DNA of 64,000 nt from Octopus vulgaris (Eukaryota). Of this stretch, positions 6,801 to 52,900 are shown in pieces. Both the position numbers and the translations under genes were made by a program. The DNA is taken from assembly GCA_951406725.2 (NCBI GenBank), contig OX597817.1, positions 106,640,001 to 106,704,000 of the forward strand. The letters run 5' to 3'. Position 1 is the first letter of the stretch, and each line of letters starts with the position of its first letter. The notes beneath the pieces were generated by a model. It had not been told where the DNA came from. It saw only the letters and a program-made list of their open reading frames with translations, and did no database searches.

Positions 6801-9800
6801 TAGTGTCTGGGAGTTAGTGAAAGAGAATGAATGGATAGGACTCTGGGGAGGTTTGTGTTGGAGGAGATGCATGGCTGCCACATGTTATATATGGCTGGGT
6901 AAAGTAGTGCATGAAGAAAAGACAAGACAGTGGGGAAGAGAAAAAATAGTGTCAGGGTTAGTGAAGGAGAGTCGGTGATAAGGGCAGATGAAAGGGAGGT
7001 GAAGGATTGAGTAGGAAAGGGGAAATAAGATGAGAAACCAATGCATATCTTTAAGATAACATGTCTAGAAGAGTATACTGACAGGAGAGTCAGGGATGGT
7101 GGATAAAGGTTCTTTGTGCACAGTGTTCACTCAAGCATCTGGATTTAGGAAGTAAGAGGGAGAAGTGATGGCAGGATATAGATGGTGGAGGTATGGAGAA
7201 GGGAGATGTTTAATATGCTCAAAGTGAGTATTTTCCTCTCAGTTTAGGGTGGCATGGTGCAGTGAGTATAAGAGATGAATGTGGCAATGAATGGGTACAG
7301 AATAAGAACAGTAGTTAGGAGAATAAATGGTGGGAGGGTGTGAGAATATAGGTTGGGTGATATATAGTGGGTGATACATGTACAAAACAATAGACAAGAG
7401 AAGAGGTGCATGCACTAGGGTTGTGCAGGTGGCTTGGTCAGTTAGTGCAGTCTTCTGTGATCTCCTTCACTTGGGACTTATTCCTAGTCATGTGGTCCTC
7501 TTATGGTTGTCCTACACGGACTGTAGCATCAGTGGTGCCACCTTTTCCTTGAGTAACCTGGTCTAACAGTTTAATACTTCTGTAGTTTTCTCTCTCACTT
7601 GTGCCTCTTACAATGAGATTGCAATGTTGGTCATTGTCTGTATTACTTGATTTACTATATGAGCAACTATTTTGGTAATGAGAGTTGCTGAAGCATGGAA
7701 CAAACTGCTGGCATCAGTTGTTAGTTGTCGGAGCACTGCATCCTTCAAAACTTCCATGCTTTCTGAGATTCGCCAACACTACACCTGATTTTCTCCCCTC
7801 CATACACACACAGGCAGGTATCTGACTCATACATTGTTCGCTTTCCAGACATTTGTACATTACTGCATATACTCTATACGCACTTTCTGACAAGTTATGG
7901 TGCACCTGAGCACTGTATACAATAATTTCATCATTATTATTATTATTTTTATTTTGACTATTGAATATTTTGTAAATGAATTTATTCATATTTTTACAAC
8001 ATGGCTGTCAGTGTTTCAGCAAAGAAAGTGTTTGCTAACCCCATCAGATAAATGTTTCAGAAGCTGTCAAGAGATGTTTCTGATTAATTTCTTAAGATGT
8101 TTCTTGGTTGGTTTGACTTTTCTGTGTATCTAGTTAAGGGTCTCATTTTGTTTGTGGAAATGACTGTACAGGAAATTAGTAAGATCATTTACCAGTTTAT
8201 AAAAGTTAAACTGTGAAGGCATTTATAAAATGTTTAAGAAAGATGTTATAAGGGTATATTAATTAGTATTGACAAACGTTTTATAAAACAAATGTTTATG
8301 TTTTGTAGATAAAGATTCACCTGATGTTCCATTGGATGTTAAAGATGCATGTCATCCAGATAAATTGCTTAAAGTAAGTAACTACTGTTCTTAGAATATG
8401 TTGTTTTTCACACCTATTCCTCAGTAATATTTCATGCATTTATACAGGATTTCTAATGTTTAGCTTTCACTTCATTTCAATCTATGTTTCTGAAATTTGA
8501 ATTATGCTTGCAATTTCTTGTGATTAATTGTGCTAATACTTGGAATAAAAATACTTCACTAAAGCATTTAACCAATCATTTACAAATGACTAGCTGGAGT
8601 ATTAATATTTTAAATTGAACAAAGACCTAATCACTGCATTTGCCAGCACACTATTACTAAGTAAATTAAAAGAGAGTAATGAAACATCTGGTCTATGCTA
8701 TTTACCCTATAGAAGCTTCTTATTGTTTTAATGGTCCTTTTTTGTCTTGTTCTTTTATATTGATGAAATGCACCATATCCACTGCAGGAAACAAAAATAG
8801 AGTGTTTTGAAATTTTAAAACACATTCTATATATTTAGATACATTTGTCAATAAAATTTAGCTATAGAAATATATTACCAAAACATAGATAGATCAATAT
8901 ACACTGTCATCATAGGAACCATTGGAATAACAAATCAGTTATTTACTTGGTGATTGATGTTTAGACCTAGATCGACCTTGATTGAAGAGATCTAGGGTCA
9001 AATGTATAACAGATGTTACCATCCCATTTTCTTGTGTTTGACCTTATGTATTTAAGACTCCATTATCCAGTTTATCCTGTGTTATGTCTTCCTTTTTTTT
9101 AAGATGGTAGGGTGCAATTTGAGGGAGATTTGGCTGTTAATCCTTGTACTTGAGCAACTGCTTAGAGGTTCACTCATTGACTTGTTATTCAGTTTTTAAT
9201 GGATACTACTGTATATGTTTCATATAGTTTGATTTGAGCATGAAATTATATTTTATATAGTAGTAGATAGATTTTATTTATTTAACTAATCTCTCTTCAT
9301 ACTGGTTGTATATAGTGGAAAGCAATATGCATGGACGTGCGCGCACACACACACACACACTGAAGACACATACATTCATTAAGCAATTAAATAAAGGTAG
9401 TCCTTTGAACTGAGCTGTCTTTGTAGACCATTATATGTCTTTGTAGAGCATTATATCCTTACAATATAATTATCTCAAGTCTTTTCCAGTTGTTTACTAG
9501 TGCTGTCTCCACTCCCTTCTCAGTTCAAACTTCATACTCTGATTGCTTGCTCATATCACTCATCAATGCCTTTGCCTCTCAGCACACCAATTAAGTTCAC
9601 TATCTTATAAAAATATCTATTGCTTTATCTGGCTGGCCTTTTTTATTTTTAAGTTTATTCTTTTACTCTTTTATTGGCTTTGAGTATTTTATGTAATTAT
9701 ATTGTCCCCAGTACTTTATCTGGCAGGTAAACATTTACGCTGGCCCCCATTTATCAAATGACTAATTGTTGCTGGGCATATATCTTTTCAAAGAATTGCT

Positions 9801-43904: not shown

Positions 43905-43985
<81 letters not shown>

Positions 43986-46900
43986 TGTGTACAGTGCTCA
44001 GGTGCACTACAACTCATCTAAAGTGTATATATAATCAGGTGAAGTTTCGGCGGATTTCGGAAAGCATGAGGGCCTTAAAAGATGCAGTGTCATGGCAGTC
44101 AACAACTGACGCAGGCAGTTTATTCCATGCTTCAGCAACTCTGAGCGTGAAAAAATGTTTCCGAAAGTCATGGGAGCTGTATTGTTTTCTGACTTTGTAG
44201 GCATGTCCACGTGTGTTAGACACATGGAGATCAAAAAGGTGTTCAGTGTTGTTGTTGGTGAGGTGGTTGATAACTTTGTGGGTGTTTACCAAGTCCGTCG
44301 CCAAACGCCGGAGCTTCAGTGAATCCATGCCCAGGGAAACAAGGCGCTCAGAATATGGTAGGTGTCTGATGGAGGGTATGCGTTTGGTTGCACGTCTCTG
44401 GACAGATTCCAGGAGGTCAATGTTCTGTGCAAGATAGGGGTTCCAAACTGATGATGCGAATTCCAAGTGTGGTCGTACCATAGCTGTATACAGTTTTAAA
44501 TAGATGGCTGGAGAGCGGCTAACAAAAGACCTGCTGAGTGATGCCAAGACACCCTCGGCCTTCCTGACAATCTTAGAGATATGCTTTGACCAACGCAAAT
44601 CACTGCTGACAGTGATGCCTAGGTCACGCTCGCAAGAGGATTTCTTGATATCAGTGTTGTGGAGGGAGTATGTGAACGCAGGGTTTTTTCTCCCAAAATG
44701 CATGGTGGTACACTTGTCCACAGCCAGTTTCAGTTGCCAGTCTGTGATCCATTGCTGCATTGTGTCTAGGTCTGATTGCAGGAAAGAGTTGTAGACATCA
44801 GGATCTGTCCTCTTGATTTCAAGGTACAGCTTGATGTCGTCTGCATATTTCAATACTGTGGCATTCTTTAAATTGGCATCTATGTCGTTAATGTATGCCA
44901 CAAACAAGAGGGGGCCAAGGACAGATCCCTGTGGTACACCCGATGACATCTCATATGGTGTAGAGTGCTGTCCTAGAACTGTGACTACCTCCTTTCGGCT
45001 GAGGATGAAGGATTTCAACCAGTTAAAAAGGTCATCCCCCACACCCATTGCAGAGAGTTTCACCATAAGCCTTTTGTGTGGCACAGAGTTGAAAGCCTTA
45101 GCAAAGTCAAGGTAGACAACATCCACCCATGAGCCACTGTCAGTAATCTGAGTAATGTCCTCAAGGAACTCGACAAGCTGGTCACTGCAGCTGGAGTTAG
45201 GGACAAATCCATATTGTGAGGGTCGGATGAGACTGTGAGAGCTCCAGAAGTTCCAGAGTGTTTCTCTGACACACGATTCCATCAGTTTTGCAATACAGCT
45301 AGTGAGACTGACTGGGCGATAGTTGACAGGTGATGTGCGGTCGCCCTTTTTGAACAGAGGAATGACACTGGCAGTTTTCCACTGCTCCGGAGTAGCACCA
45401 TTGTTGAGACAGTACTGGAAGAAAATAGAAAGCTGGTGTAAAAGGAAGTGCCTGCCACGTTTGAGAAGCAGGTATGTAACTCCATCGAGACCAGGGGAGG
45501 CATAGTTGCGCTTATTTTGAAGGTGACGTCGCAGCATTGCAGGTGTAAATTCCATAGTTGTTATGGAGTTTGCTGTTAGTGATGGTGAAGATGGTACATT
45601 TTGACTTTCAACAGTGAATATGTTTGCATAGCACTCGGCAATGAGTTCTGCGCATTCCTTGGGGTCGTCAGTGATCTGGTTTGTGTGAGGGTTGCGAAGA
45701 GGGCCCACTGGAGAGTGAGGTCTCTGCTTTGAGTGCACATATTTCCAGAAAACCTTGCTGTCAGGATTGGCTGCTATGCACTGTTCAAATTCAAGCACTG
45801 CTTTTTTTGTCACTTGCTTGAGATGGTTGGAGGATTTATTCCGCTTCTTCCTGTTGGTGTCTGATTTATGCAACCTGTATTCCCGTTCAGCAGTCCGACG
45901 TTCCCTCCTGGCAAGTCGGACCGCTGAAGTTTCCCAAATTGCCCTTTTGGGGCGGTTCTTCTTTTTTTGTTTACGTGGCACTGATGCTGCACATGCTGCC
46001 CATATTGAGTCCAGGATACTCTGGAGTATAGTATTCACATCTCCAGAGTTGTAGAATTCACGCCAGTTTGGGTGCTGTAGTTCAGTGTGGTACAGGTTCC
46101 AATCTGCTCTCTTCCAATCGAAGGAAGCAGATTGGAGATGGTTCAGGTTTTTGTTGCCCGCAAGAGCCAGATTGGCGATGATCATAGCATGATCAGAGTC
46201 ACCTAGAGGTTCCTCCGTAGTGCAATTGATAACCGCTTCAGGAGTTGTGGTGAAGAGCAGGTCCAAGGTGTTGTCGCCTCTTGTTGGAGAGGTGACTACT
46301 TGTGACCAGTTTGAGTCCAGCACAAGCTCAACAAAATCGTTTGCACTCTGTGGCCAATGGAAGGTCTCCCAATCGATCTCAGGATGATTGAAATCGCCTG
46401 CAATAAACACATAAGTGGCTGTTTTCCTGGCAGCAGCTCGGAGGACATTGCAAAGCTGTGTGTCCCGATGGTAACTTGGGGGACGATAAACAACGCCAAG
46501 CAGGAGTGTTGACATGGTCATACGCACGTCACAGAAAAAAACTTCTTCTTGTGATTCGTTCAAATCGGCACAAGGAATTACCAAAAAATTTGAACGAACG
46601 TAGACCATCACACCACCACCACGGCGGTTAGTGCGGTCCTTACGGAAGAGGTTGTACCCCGTAATGTTGAAAACCCCATCACAGAGTAAGGAATGCGCCC
46701 ATGTTTCCGTGACAGTGATGAAGTCAGGGTCAACACTTCTGACGTAGGCGTTGAACAAATGTATTTTGTTGCATAAACTGCGAGCATTTAAGGACAACAA
46801 TTTGTACCCTGCTCACAGTTTATGATGGTGTGTAGAGGATGGCAGGTTGTTCTGGCTTAGTTTCCCTGAGTTGCTGTAGTTTTTTTAGTTATTGTGGGTA

Positions 46901-49900
46901 GAGAGCACTCAGACCAGCTGGTATCTCTCTTCCACGTTTCAGCAGTCTTGACAAATCTCCAGATTTGTCCATCTTCCCGAAGACTGAAGCTTTCCTGTAG
47001 AGCTGAGTTCCTATTCAGGGAAGCCACTACACGTAGCTTTGGGCGTACATCGGATGGTAAGCCTGGGCGTGTTCGGAAGGTGGTCCGATTTTCCCGCCCA
47101 GCTTTAACTGAGGCCAGATGGTAAGAGGTTGCCTCAGTGGGGTCCGTAAAAGACAACTTGATGAGCCTAGGTTTTGGGCCAGGTCGTCCAAGGCGGATAG
47201 CACCCGTTGGGGGAACGCAGCCTAGGTCTTTGGCTGAGTTGGCAGCAAAAGCCTGAAGATCAGCCATGTTGCTGGGATATGTGGCTTATCACCCCTCCCA
47301 TTACGTCTTCCACTGCTTTGTCCCCGCCACTTTTTTTTTTACTTTTTCCCCCCTTTTCTTTCTTTCCCTTTCTCATCTCTCTTCCCTGTTTCTTGATATA
47401 TGTGTGAATCTTTCATATTTCAATTGATTCAAAAACAAAAAAAAAATATTGTTGCTATATGACTGCTCTTTTTCTTATCCGATAGATTGAAGATTTGCAA
47501 ATTAACCTCAGCCGGCAAGAAAAAGAACACACCAGACGTGAGGATTTATTGAAGCGAGAAATTTCTGACTTGCAGCAGGTTTGACCCTTTCTGTTTAAGC
47601 TTGTCTTCTATTTACTCTTTGTGTTCTACATTTCATTTGTTATTTAGCCTCAGGTTAGTTCTGACCTAATCAAAACTATGATCAAAGGCATTCCAAATAT
47701 TTGTATCTTTTATTCAAACTTTTAGTATTTCTAGAACTATTTTATTCAATATGTCCTTTTTTTCTTTCTTTGAGACAATAAGATGTGGTTAGTACAAGGG
47801 AGATTTGGTTTCTGTTTCTAGATGGTTAAGTGACCATAGATACTTTTGTAAATTAATTTACAACAAAAAGAAAAATGGATTTTCTTATCTGTTATTTTTT
47901 ACTTGCTTCACTCATTGGACCGCAGCCATGCTGGGATACCACCTTGAAGGGTTTAGCTATTCATATTGACCTCAGGACTCATTTTTAAGCCTGCTACTTA
48001 TTCTATCAATCTCTTTTTGCCATGTAAACAAACCAACACTGGATGTCAAATGCCAGTAAGGGATAAACACAAAGTCACACACACACACATGATGGACTTC
48101 TTTTAGTTTCATTCTATCAAACCCACTCATCTACTCACAACACTCTAGAGTTTGTAGAAGACATTTGTCCAAGCTGCCATACAATGGGATTGAACCTGAA
48201 ACCATGTGGTTGGGAAGCAAGCTTCTTATACAGCCAAGCCAGCTTATTTATATTTCTTTGAAATTTTTTAAAGAGTTTAAAATTTTTTCAGTAAAATCCT
48301 CGCTGTTAATTTTAACAAATGAGACAGCCAATTGAAATGATGTAACTCATAACTAATTGGAATAGAAAAATTACTTTAAAATAATTTTTATAATTTCATA
48401 AAAGGTTATCAAACCCTCTAGAATTCTGTCATGTTATGATGATATATTTTCTTGTTTAAAGATGACATATTCATCTGATTTATCATTGTAGAGATTGCAA
48501 GAAGATGAGGCCCGAAATCAAGATTTAACAATCTCTGTAACCTCTGGTAAGAAATATATTATAAAATATAAATTCCACTTTTTTTTTATGGTAATGGATT
48601 ATGCAGTAAAGAGAGAGAGCAGTGCCCATGACTTTCTTTTGCAGGTCCTCCAAGGTTGGAGACATTAGCATCATTATCCTCATTGTTTTAACATCCACTT
48701 TTTTAAGCTTGCATTGGTTGGATGGAATTTGTTGAGGCAGATTTCTCTACTGTCAGATGCCCTTCCTGTCACCAACCTTCACCTGTTCCCAAGTAAGGTA
48801 ATATTTCCTTACAGCTGGACATGTTTTCATGGAACATTTGAAACAAAGGGCACTGCTTGTATGATAGTGACACTTATTTCTGACAATCATATGTTGTCAA
48901 GGCAAGGAAACGCCAATCCATATGCATGTAGACACTCACAGGCAGACACACACACACTTAAGAGAACCCACCCAACACAACAAAATTGAGATCTTAAAAC
49001 CAAGGTGCTACATCAAGAGCATTGGTGTGCATACTGGTGCCATGTAAAAAGCACTCAGTGCATTCTATAAAGTGGTTGGTGTTAGGAAGAGCATCCAGCC
49101 ATAGAAACCAAGATTAAACAGACTCTGGAATCTGGTGCAGCCCCTGGCCTTGCCAGTTCCTGTCAGGTCATCCAACCGATGTCACCATGGAAAACAGACA
49201 TTAAATGTTGATGATGATGATGATGATGATTATGGTGATCACACACACACACAGTAGGCACTTTTCAGTCTCCATCTACCAAAGCTTTGATTGGCTGAGG
49301 GCTCTAGCAGATGACATTTGCCCAAGGTGCCTCTTTGGGATTGGACCCAGAACTAAGTCATTGGGAATCAAGCTTCCCAACCACACAGAACCACTGATGC
49401 AATACAAACTGCATATCTGTTGAACTATGTGAGTGGAAATGTTTCTGTTTTTCATATCAAATTAATGTTTATAATGTCTAACATGTTGGTTATATACTAG
49501 AAAATATTTTGTGTAATGTGTTCTATCAGTTCTCAAAAAATAGACCAGGGGAAGAAAACTTATATTTTAATTTAGTTTAGAAAAGAATTTCTGATAATGA
49601 AGGGATGTTATTATTTGTTTTGCATATCTGATTCAAAATTGTTTCACAAATTCCTCTTGTTAAAATCATATACATTGTTTTGTAGCTACTCGTCCTCTGT
49701 TACGGCAGATAGAAAATCTACAGTCCACATATGGTGCCCAGTCATTGCTGTGGGAGAAAAGAGAAAAAGCTCTTACAGAAAGAATCTGTAAGTTGAGGTT
49801 TTTTTTTTCTCTAACAAGCATATTAATATAACAAAAAAAAAAAAAAACATCATAAATGAAATTTCAATTAAAAATCATGGAAATCAATTAGTTCTACCTT

Positions 49901-52900
49901 TCCCTCAAGCTTTTAATTTTTCAGTTAGGGTAAGTAAATTACCATTTGCTGATGAAAGAAAAATGTAATATTTCATATCTTTGTTATCAAGTTTTATATA
50001 TCTATGATGGTAGTTTATTCAACTGTGACAGTAAATGGAATGTTTCCTGGTTTTATGTACTACTTGAGCCTATCATTCCATCAGTGGTTGATAAATGTAG
50101 ATATCTTTAGATAACTGTAAAATACCAATACAATATCTTACATTATCAATAAATTTATTAATAAAAATTTACTAATTCCAGTCTACTTTACTGAGGTATG
50201 ATTTTACATTTTTTTTTCCTTCTTTCTATTATTTGTTTTTATTGTCTTAATATTTTCATTGAAGCTGAAATCCAGCAGCAGTTAGCTGTGGCTGAAGAAA
50301 AGGAAAATATTAGCAGTGAGAAAATCCTAACATTATCTTCAAAAATTAAAGCATTAGAAACACAAAATACCAGTATGAGACAAGAAAAATGTCAACTTGC
50401 AGCACAATTAGAAATGGAAAAATCTAAAAGAGAAATGCTGGAAGACAGCCAGAACAAGTAAATGTCACTTTAGTTTTCAAAAAATAAAAGTTTTTTTTTT
50501 ACTTAATTTTAAAAGTATATGACATCATTAATTTAATAAAGTTAGTTTTTATTGTAGACGTTTTGTAACAATCTATAAAATGGAAAATCTTACATTTTCT
50601 ATTTTATGTGATATATATTTGAAGAACATAGATATGTTATAGATTCAAATCTTCTGTATATTTCTGAACTTTCTTCCATTAATGCCAGTTAGATATAGAG
50701 AGAGGGCCATCAAAGTGAGTGCGACAATATTTTCAAAGATATCAACTTTTCTTTATTTAATGAAATGAAAACACTGAATATGAAAGTAGCTATTAAATTT
50801 ATTTGTAGCTGTTTTCTACTTGAGAAAGTTGAAGTAAGCTTTCTTTTTATAAATTTACTTGTGTTCAGTCTCACTGCATGGAGCTTGGGGCAAGTGTCTT
50901 CAAAGCTTTATGTGAATAATTGAGTTTATATCTCAGAACTATGATCAAAAGTGATCCATCTGTGGCCATTTCATCTTATTTTTCAGGCCTTTCTAAGATA
51001 ATGTGTCCCACTCATTTTGTTTTTAAGATGGTAAAGTGTGAACTGTAGGAGATTTTGAATGACTGCTAAATCAGATATCGTTACTAAACTAGATATCTGT
51101 TACTAAATGATATTCCATTTGTTTTAGTGTAATCAACATTATCAGTAAAGAAATAATAATAACATATGCTCTAACACTTTAGTTATTGTATTTATATCAT
51201 GCAATGTGATGATTTTTATGTTATTTTATATTTCAGTGCCACGTGTCAGTTGGCTGCTTTACGCCAACAAATGTCCAATGAGGTGATGGAATTAAAAAAA
51301 GATAAGGTAAATTTAGTCTTTATTTCTAAAAAAGATTGAGAAGAATGTTGGTGTGGTTGAATGGTTAAAGCATTTGCTTTGCAATGACTTGGGTTTTGGG
51401 TTTGATCTTACTGCATACCATCTTGTCTTCTACTACAGACTTCAACTGACCAGTGTCTTGTAAGTGAAATCTGATAAATGGAAACTGTATGGATGCTCAT
51501 TGTATGTGTGTGTGTGATTGTCCTTATGTATCATCATATTCACCCCATTTTCCTGTAAACAAATGTCTCACAGCAGTTCAGCATGCAAAGATCTGGAATA
51601 AAGAACCTTATTTGAAAAGGTGTAATGTTTGGTATCAGTATGTAAAATACTGGCTGAAGAAGTTTCATCCAGCTTATGTTAGTATCAAAAAAGCAACTGA
51701 ATTTGGAAACAGTGTTTTTATGTTGGGTTAACATATACACTGATCATTACTTACATATCAGTATGCACACTGCTGAAACCCAAGGGGAATGAGCGAATGA
51801 GAAAGTATCTACATGGTAGCTTGACCTGCCAGAAATTCTCAAATCATGTTCTACTATCTTTAAAAAAAAAAGGATACAGACAATGTAGTCTTGTTATAGA
51901 TAAAAGTCATATCACTGATATGATTATTTATTAGAACAAGAGGGTATCAGTTTTATGGTTGATTGACTATTGTTTTCAAGTAAAGGCATGTGGCATATGG
52001 TGTTAGGTTCATAATCATTAAGTTGTTTCAATTCTTACACTGGGAAGTGCATTATGTCTTGAAACAAGTTACTTTACTTGACACTGCTCTAGTTTACTCA
52101 TCTGAAAATGAGAACTAGTGGTAGTTAGGAGTTTACACTCTGTTGAACTGTTGTCTTTGATTAGGTACTTTCAGTCACCCAAACATCTCAGAAACCCAAA
52201 TTAACTCGTCTCATGAGCTTGCTGCCTCCAGGTGGACTTTTACTATTTTCAAGGTGTACATCTTAATGTATCTTGGTTTGGTTTTGCAATTTTAATTACT
52301 TTGTTTGAGAAGATTTATGATGAAAATCATTTCAGTTACAACCAGATAACCATCTTTCTCATGGATATTGTATATTTAGGATTGCATTGGTATAATATAT
52401 CCTTCTCTTTTCAGGATAGTAGGTTGTAATTTGAGGAATATTTGACCACTACTTCTAGCAGATCAAATGATAATGTAAGGTCTTCCTCATAGGCTCAATG
52501 TTTTGCAACTTTGAAATAATTTCTATCAGGTAAAGTCATAGCATAGAGCAGTGGTTCTCAATATTTTTGACTTTATGGTGCACTGAAGATGAAGTAAAAA
52601 AATTACTAGAACTCTTCACATAGAAATTTAAAAAGCAGAAAAGCTATTTTAAGGTCAAAAAATTTAGAAGAATAAAGAAAACTATTGCTTGTTGGTTTAA
52701 TGTCTGTTTTTCCATTCTAGTATGGGTTGGATTGGAACTTATTTGAGATTGCCTTTTATAGCCAGGCTCTTTCACCAATCCTTGTTTCTGAGTGAAGGAT
52801 ATTTTTTTATTTCACTGGTATTGGAAAGTGTAAGATGACCATAAAGCTAACAAGTAATGTAAACATATTAATGTTTTACTGAGACAGTGACAAGATGTCA

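Follow-up and report, generated by a model that had tools for sequence, protein, structure and literature searches.

A predicted programmed −1 frameshift site at the ORF1/ORF2 junction of a CR1-type LINE family in Octopus vulgaris

RESULTS

A young, truncated LINE copy and its family

The window, by which we mean the whole stretch of 64,000 nt of Octopus vulgaris DNA analyzed here, carries on its minus strand one copy of a LINE family designated family A. The features of this copy are given in Table 1, in the coordinates of the window.

Table 1. Features of the family A copy and of its ORF1/ORF2 junction
Feature	Position	Strand	Remarks
Family A LINE copy	43905..47269	−	CR1-type, young, 5′-truncated
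ORF1, C-terminal third	46857..47269	−	Ends GGA AAC TAA; full ORF1 ~410 aa in full-length copies
ORF1/ORF2 overlap	46857..46884	−	No ATG; contains most of an A7 run (46886–46880)
Slippery heptamer G_GGA_AAC	46860..46866	−	In ORF1 phase, directly 5′ of the ORF1 stop; predicted −1 shift site
Linker, shift site to endonuclease	46792..46856	−	ORF2 frame, no ATG
TGA in the linker	46813..46815	−	Specific to this copy, within a CpG; sister copies have CGA and a related subgroup has CAA
15-bp stem-loop	46772..46824	−	46824–46810 paired with 46786–46772; begins 35 nt after the heptamer; family A only
ORF2 body	44035..46812	−	APE endonuclease and reverse transcriptase (Pfam Exo_endo_phos and RVT_1, both above cut-off); 925 aa without a stop beyond the TGA
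3′ UTR	43905..44034	−	Short; small stem-loop (~44011–43988, by eye) and (ATT)n tail; same end in other copies

Searching the species' own genome with a 601-nt query returned 370 candidates, 40 of which were scored, all of them 99–100% identical; 30 loci, including that in the window, were taken. Being ~99.8% alike, they are copies of family A, which is very young and present in high copy number, and agreement among them reflects recent descent, not selection. Because the family is this uniform, diverged relatives were sought without using the heptamer. Comparison with the other family A loci places the 5′ edge of the window copy, at 47269, inside ORF1; this boundary was seen in 26 of the 29 other loci, most of which run on into more ORF1. 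From the 5′ ends of three copies, full-length family A starts ~1840 nt upstream of the heptamer and measures ~4.7 kb in total. The full-length copies L175, L176, and L177 have 5′ ends that begin ...ACATGTCATGATACAGAGTC, and in L176 these first bases (...ACATGTCATGATACAGAGTC) recur as short tandem repeats at the 5′ junction.

The properties of a LINE were all observed: dispersed copies, variable 5′ truncation, a common 3′ end with a simple-repeat tail, and an ORF2 that encodes an APE endonuclease followed by a reverse transcriptase. No clear target-site duplication was seen on inspection of the two ends of the window copy. We take the family to be of the CR1 type from its protein motifs and from a 3′ end built of a stem-loop and a microsatellite, the tree of endonuclease (EN) sequences containing only unnamed relatives. 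The window copy is probably dead, because it is 5′-truncated and bears a nonsense change in the linker.

Elsewhere in the window, a short 3′ fragment (7669–7785, plus strand) is akin to the C terminus of ORF2 (67% over 39 aa). On the same strand, a coiled-coil-like open stretch at 50195–50461 resembles a host exon, its weak Rab11-FIP3-like match (E 0.0095) falling below the cut-off. The LINE may lie antisense within a host intron.

The proteins encoded by ORF1 and ORF2

By eye, ORF1 comprises what we take to be a Cys-rich N terminus, Gln-rich repeats, and an RRM-like part. In L003 (protein P0001, residues ~120–205), the Gln-rich stretch is a tandem repeat whose length varies among copies. ORF1 (P0001) had no significant match in Pfam and none to an esterase, the ORF1 type by which canonical vertebrate CR1 elements are recognized, and in the Atlas every match was under 0.9.

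In ORF2, the Asn of LNARS (46788–46786) and the Glu of TETW (46707–46705) align, through an endonuclease profile, with N14 and E43 of the human L1 endonuclease (PDB 1vyb/2v0s), presumably its catalytic residues. L1 ORF2p structures were likewise matched by profile search, and a PDB search with the single protein sequence gave chance matches only.

The ORF1/ORF2 junction

Read on the minus strand, ORF1 ends ACT CAG GGA AAC TAA, with the stop codon at 46859–46857. An earlier, preliminary description of this DNA had pointed to G GGA AAC (46866–46860) as a heptamer in the phase X_XXY_YYZ and had placed ORF2 in the −1 frame relative to ORF1, both of which are borne out by our reading. The −1 frame is shut upstream by a TAA at 46887–46885, leaving an overlap of only ~10 codons. 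As also described, ORF2 has no ATG until the sequence GGGVM: the first is codon 87 from the heptamer (46608–46606), past LNARSL and TETW. A start at this ATG would cut into the enzyme, because the residues aligning with N14 and E43 of L1 precede it.

The junction is the same in the sister copies. The heptamer is intact in 28 of the 29 other family A loci, and the linker is open, in frame, and free of Met in 29 of 30 pattern-matched loci, with the exception of L077, which does not resemble the element. From the site to the first domain, an open −1 frame without a start of its own is present in all 29 sister copies; in the window copy it is broken by the TGA. The supposition that this TGA was a copy-specific change from CGA proved correct, as the codon is CGA in 29/29 other loci. 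Among A-type pattern-matched loci, the same codon is CGA in 18 and CAA in 4. One further copy with TGA was found by eye among the 100 listed of 241 pattern matches (control 7), as expected from CpG decay.

Family B and a metagenome relative share the heptamer

Family B was found with an endonuclease pattern that did not include the heptamer and with family A excluded (38 matches, 30 loci taken). Its endonuclease is 78% identical to that of family A, and its ORF1 ends KILGN*. GGGAAAC-TAA is present in 29 of the 30 loci, the remaining one having GGGAAAT-TAA. The distance from the heptamer to LN is 72 nt, compared with 75 in family A, a difference of one whole codon. When the stretch between the heptamer and LNARSL was checked for an in-frame ATG, none was present in family A or B.

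The locus L095, from a metagenome, has 57% EN identity and forms a clade with families A and B (100/100). Its ORF1 ends CAG GGA AAC TAG, with ORF2 again in −1 and again at 72 nt; further upstream, this copy bears a 1-nt lesion. An ATG lies two codons before its conserved Asn, inside the first strand according to the L1 alignment, and this counts against a reading by frameshift. Ungapped identity of the flanks amounts to 15/30 upstream and 21/30 downstream between A and B, 14/30 and 8/30 between A and L095, and 5/30 and 10/30 between B and L095. Nine bases, GGGAAACTA, are identical in all three, and the base preceding GGA is G whether its codon is Gln (CAG) or Leu (TTG). The check on conservation thus found the heptamer and the stop kept in two families, B and L095, whose flanks have diverged. 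It is most improbable that the heptamer is carried over by chance or ancestry as a neutral remnant here, even if other CR1-type elements use theirs; the exact terminal layout is common to just these three lineages, and A and B are still alike at 21 of the 30 nt downstream, but such a remnant would hardly leave GGGAAACTA the same in all three with A and L095 agreeing at 8/30 positions downstream and B and L095 at 5/30 upstream. More diverged families in the same genome were sought with two exclusion patterns, which gave two matches each, one being family A and three unlike the element.

Seventeen of the 30 family B loci (L031–L040, L042, L045–L047, L056, L058, and L060) constitute one chimeric lineage, in which the reverse transcriptase region of another LINE is joined, always at one position, to the 80 codons that immediately precede the family B endonuclease. 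The foreign region is RTE-like by eye, with an RVT_1 match and a weak PHD match. These copies have an extra G at the slippery run (4G) and are dispersed over many contigs, having therefore spread as a unit. A natural in-frame fusion of ORF1 and ORF2 in family B was considered and rejected, since the 17 4G loci share a single chimeric 5′ junction and lack most of ORF1.

Slippery sites in a survey of related elements

Metagenome relatives were ranked by endonuclease similarity and the best 80 of 455 loci were surveyed. ORF1 was at least 150 aa long in 57 of these 80, overlapping ORF2 in −1 in 44, in +1 in 4, and not at all in 9; the 23 loci whose upstream ORF falls short of 150 aa and the 13 outside the −1 overlap were set aside before the 44-locus count. 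The 44 loci fall into 35 clusters at 70% EN identity, and on the EN tree the median length of a terminal branch is 0.27 changes per column. Of the 44 loci, 29 contain a strict heptamer, at 29/2226 in-phase positions of the overlap versus 3/4364 out-of-phase positions and 22/13222 positions of the ORF1 body. At the latter rate (in phase), a strict heptamer is expected in the ~10-codon overlap of family A ~2% of the time.

Under a relaxed rule, in which G_GA is allowed as the first triplet because it is in use as such (PMC5009743; here and below, PMC articles are cited from excerpts), a site is present in 42/44 loci and an AAC-ending one in 41/44, two loci having no site of either kind. The 41 AAC-ending sites are 17 G_GAA_AAC, 17 A_AAA_AAC, 5 G_GGA_AAC, and 2 U_UUA_AAC, and in 37 of them a U follows directly. 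The ORF2 frame shuts at a median of 15 nt upstream of the site; downstream it is open through overlaps of as much as 432 nt. Of the 41 relatives, 24 lack an ATG between the site and the Asn. The other 17 have one in frame, no more than 6 codons from the Asn in 6 of them and further up in 11, and these count against a reading by frameshift. In two loci, L122 and L125, U_UUA_AAC is followed by the stop. When all 80 loci were scanned without calling ORF1, an AAC-ending site was found in the −1 phase in 54, versus 1 and 11 in the other phases. The 26 loci without an in-phase AAC-ending site include several short or broken contigs; an in-phase site is also present in 8 of the 23 short-ORF loci and 5 of the 13 non-overlap loci.

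Because the sites lie in ORF1 protein motifs, codon choice was evaluated with motifs defined by their amino acids, using one locus per cluster and an expectation derived from ORF1 codon usage. Slippery codons were used at 31/31 motif sites, against 1.95 expected, a result that does not amount to a clean p-value because the motifs were picked post hoc and the loci share ancestry. The first base of the heptamer follows the P-site codon, being A when AAA comes next and G when GAA or GGA does, and the slippery form persists across sites that encode E, G, or K. In families A and B, L095, and the survey loci alike, the site is conserved beyond the needs of the protein. The survey shows selection at the nucleotide level that favors slippery heptamers where ORF1 and ORF2 of related elements overlap.

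Some other features of the surveyed loci were noted. About 12 nt after the heptamer, GTGGTAGG (V-V-G in ORF1) was found unchanged, by eye, in L096–L098, L102, L107, L108, L112, and L113, and also in L116, L123, L127, L133, L141, L148, L162, and L172; it is a candidate for a stimulator of the sequence type or for a dual-coding constraint. In L132, L138, and L169, ORF1 and ORF2 share a reading frame and are divided by a single UGA, with C as the next base (UGA-CUA, UGA-CAA, and UGA-CUU, respectively). These three have similar ORF1 tails, no slippery site, and an ATG ~4 codons before the endonuclease Asn, and are candidates for a stop-readthrough version of the same fusion. L101 is one A short in its A_AAA_AAC run relative to its close relative L126, and its ORF1 stops early; the missing A probably reflects a lesion of the slippery run private to this copy.

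Sequencing runs across the junction

The junction stretch occurs in 20 of the 24 listed sequencing runs, most of which are guessed to be RNA. Contigs of four probable RNA runs, compared with L003, cover the junction and have no joints or indels there, one of them spanning L003 positions 1–2380. Such unbroken contigs are a weak hint against splicing, as contigs drop rare forms and the RNA status of the runs is guessed.

These data bear on another explanation, namely that the heptamer is kept for an ORF1 motif, RNA packaging, or polymerase slippage on runs of A and G, with ORF2 being made from a spliced, slipped, or subgenomic RNA. The sites of the relatives do fall in protein motifs (EN-Y, KN-L), but their synonymous positions are fixed across changes of residue between E, G, and K. 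An A7 run does lie in the family A overlap, but it is absent from family B. The extra G brings the two frames into register in 17 of the 30 family B loci, but these 4G copies are one chimeric lineage without most of ORF1. Since the contigs of the four probable RNA runs (a status that is guessed) also have no joints or indels at the junction, we regard this explanation as very unlikely.

RNA structure downstream of the heptamer

Canonical 3′ stimulators of −1 frameshifting are stem-loops or pseudoknots placed ~5–9 nt downstream of the slippery site. A conserved stimulator at this spacing was not found with a folding program that does not handle pseudoknots. The first 60 nt after the site fold like shuffled sequences in families A (z 0.1) and B (z −0.5), a stem of moderate strength lies near the site in L095 (z −2.85), and z is below −2 for the 60-nt fold in just 8 of 41 relatives.

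The preliminary description had reported only a weak stem (cctgc/gcagg) downstream. This was incomplete, as it overlooked the 15-bp stem listed in Table 1 (z ~−5.5; 0/200 shuffles as stable), which reaches ~−29.6 kcal/mol over 90 nt. The 3 kb scanned contain no longer perfect stem. An older copy of family A has it in a weaker form, and family B and L095 lack it. As a stimulator, this stem was rejected: it is too far from the heptamer, it is not conserved, and windows within ORF2 fold equally or more strongly (z −8 at +910). Two further candidates were also discarded. Pairing of site positions +7 to +14 with the hairpin loop, suggested by eye, does not appear in any of the 10 best folds (within 3 kcal/mol). 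The 3′ end, as a long-range partner, ranked from 114th to 362nd of ~812–824 windows in 3/3 copies, the best internal partner differing between the three. In L003, coding windows of ORF2 fold strongly at ~+210, +685–760, and +885–1010 nt from the heptamer (z −4 to −8), more than plain coding DNA would lead one to expect.

A strong hairpin after the ORF1 stop is also what one might look for if ORF2 were made separately, by termination and reinitiation at a near-cognate codon or independently of AUG as in human L1, perhaps aided by the hairpin as in SART1. For reinitiation, SART1 requires RNA structure 3′ of the ORF1 stop (PMC10275272), and in mammalian L1 the ORF2 ATG can be replaced by any sense codon (PMC1965478). 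Family A has, besides the hairpin, a CTG 11 nt past the stop, and an ATG is found near the start of the endonuclease in L095 and some relatives. The CTG, however, is CAG in family B, for which reason a CUG start at this position was dismissed, and the hairpin is not conserved. The UAAUG stop-start coupling of the SART1 type is not found either, UAA being followed by G in family A and by C in family B, without AUG. Because reinitiation would also leave unexplained the slippery synonymous codons, the fixed −1 phase, and the long open overlaps upstream of the stop, we consider it unlikely, with a chance of perhaps one in nine.

DISCUSSION

A predicted ORF1–ORF2 fusion

It is likely, from the comparisons made here, that programmed −1 frameshifting at G_GGA_AAC makes an ORF1–ORF2 fusion in this LINE family. 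The idea of a Gag-Pol-like product, already put forward in the preliminary description, gains support from the CGA of the sister copies, the missing ATG in families A and B, the conserved heptamer, and the selection seen in the survey. We infer that translation would mostly terminate at UAA, yielding ORF1p, and that a minority of ribosomes would slip back one base on the heptamer and read on through the ATG-less linker. The product would be a fusion of ~1350 aa (410 plus 943), made in a ratio to ORF1p like that of Gag to Gag-Pol. A stop in the next codon, or the U that follows the site in 37/41 relatives, may contribute to the slip. In two single-ORF relatives (predicted proteins P0019 and P0020), one polypeptide combines a PHD finger with the endonuclease and the reverse transcriptase, a layout which indicates that an N-terminal extension on this part is tolerated.

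That recoding to an ORF1–ORF2 fusion is the ancestral and general route for two-ORF LINEs of the CR1 group appears to us slightly more probable than the opposite. If so, the retrotransposition enzyme of a large group of LINEs would be a Gag-Pol-like fusion, unlike that of L1. The enzyme of CR1-type elements that frameshift would carry ORF1 at its N terminus, with slippage setting the stoichiometry of ORF1p and ORF2p. Annotations that start ORF2 at an internal Met, or that call such elements broken, would then be wrong. The lack of an obvious stimulator may hint at a hitherto undescribed class of frameshift signal.

Comparison with known systems

The heptamer G_GGA_AAC is the one used by PEG10. 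It ranks with the heptamers most prone to shifting, and G_GA is a first triplet in use (PMC5009743). Like PEG10 and the gag-pol genes of retroviruses and LTR elements, the LINE is predicted to follow the logic of a structural protein versus its fusion to an enzyme. Unlike PEG10, which has an identified pseudoknot stimulator (PMC5009743), it has none that could be found. As no protease domain was detected in the Pfam search of ORF2, the fusion would likely stay whole, unlike the products of gag-pol systems.

The way in which ORF2 is expressed has been worked out for few LINEs (L1, SART1, and Zorro3; PMC1965478 for L1 and Zorro3), all with separate initiation. Like SART1 and mammalian L1, the octopus element has a bicistronic RNA from which ORF2 is to be made after ORF1. 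SART1, by reinitiation (PMC10275272), and L1 (PMC1965478) make a separate ORF2p, whereas here the junction has no AUG, the frames overlap in −1, and the heptamer is under selection. HeT-A relies on a frameshift for its gag, and for TART separate initiation is presumed (PMC5009743). Vertebrate LINEs of the CR1 group likewise have an ORF2 with APE and RT and an ORF1 upstream (PMC13343379). In the vertebrate CR1 and L2 elements, ORF1 is of the esterase type (PMC13343379), unlike the ORF1 found here, which has no esterase match.

In excerpts of the main text of that CR1-group survey (PMC13343379), the words “frameshift,” “slippery,” and “translation” are absent, and excerpts of PMC5006619, PMC5443660, PMC11835228, and PMC7175516 added nothing on CR1 frameshifting. 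Our literature search found no frameshift site in CR1-type LINEs; its scope did not extend to most subscription papers, to supplements, or to Repbase, where an older proposal may exist. What we propose on the basis of sequence is thus a known mechanism, placed in a LINE group for which no prior description was found.

There is precedent for a −1 frameshift among non-LTR elements, since the Dictyostelium elements TRE5-A and TRE3-A are stated to require one for ORF2 (PMC5911963, figure legend). These resemble the octopus element in having two ORFs, with APE and RT in ORF2. They are amoeba elements with a zinc finger, an oligo(A) tail, and targeting to tRNA genes, whereas the element described here is an animal LINE of the CR1 type whose heptamer is defined and has been kept in many lineages.
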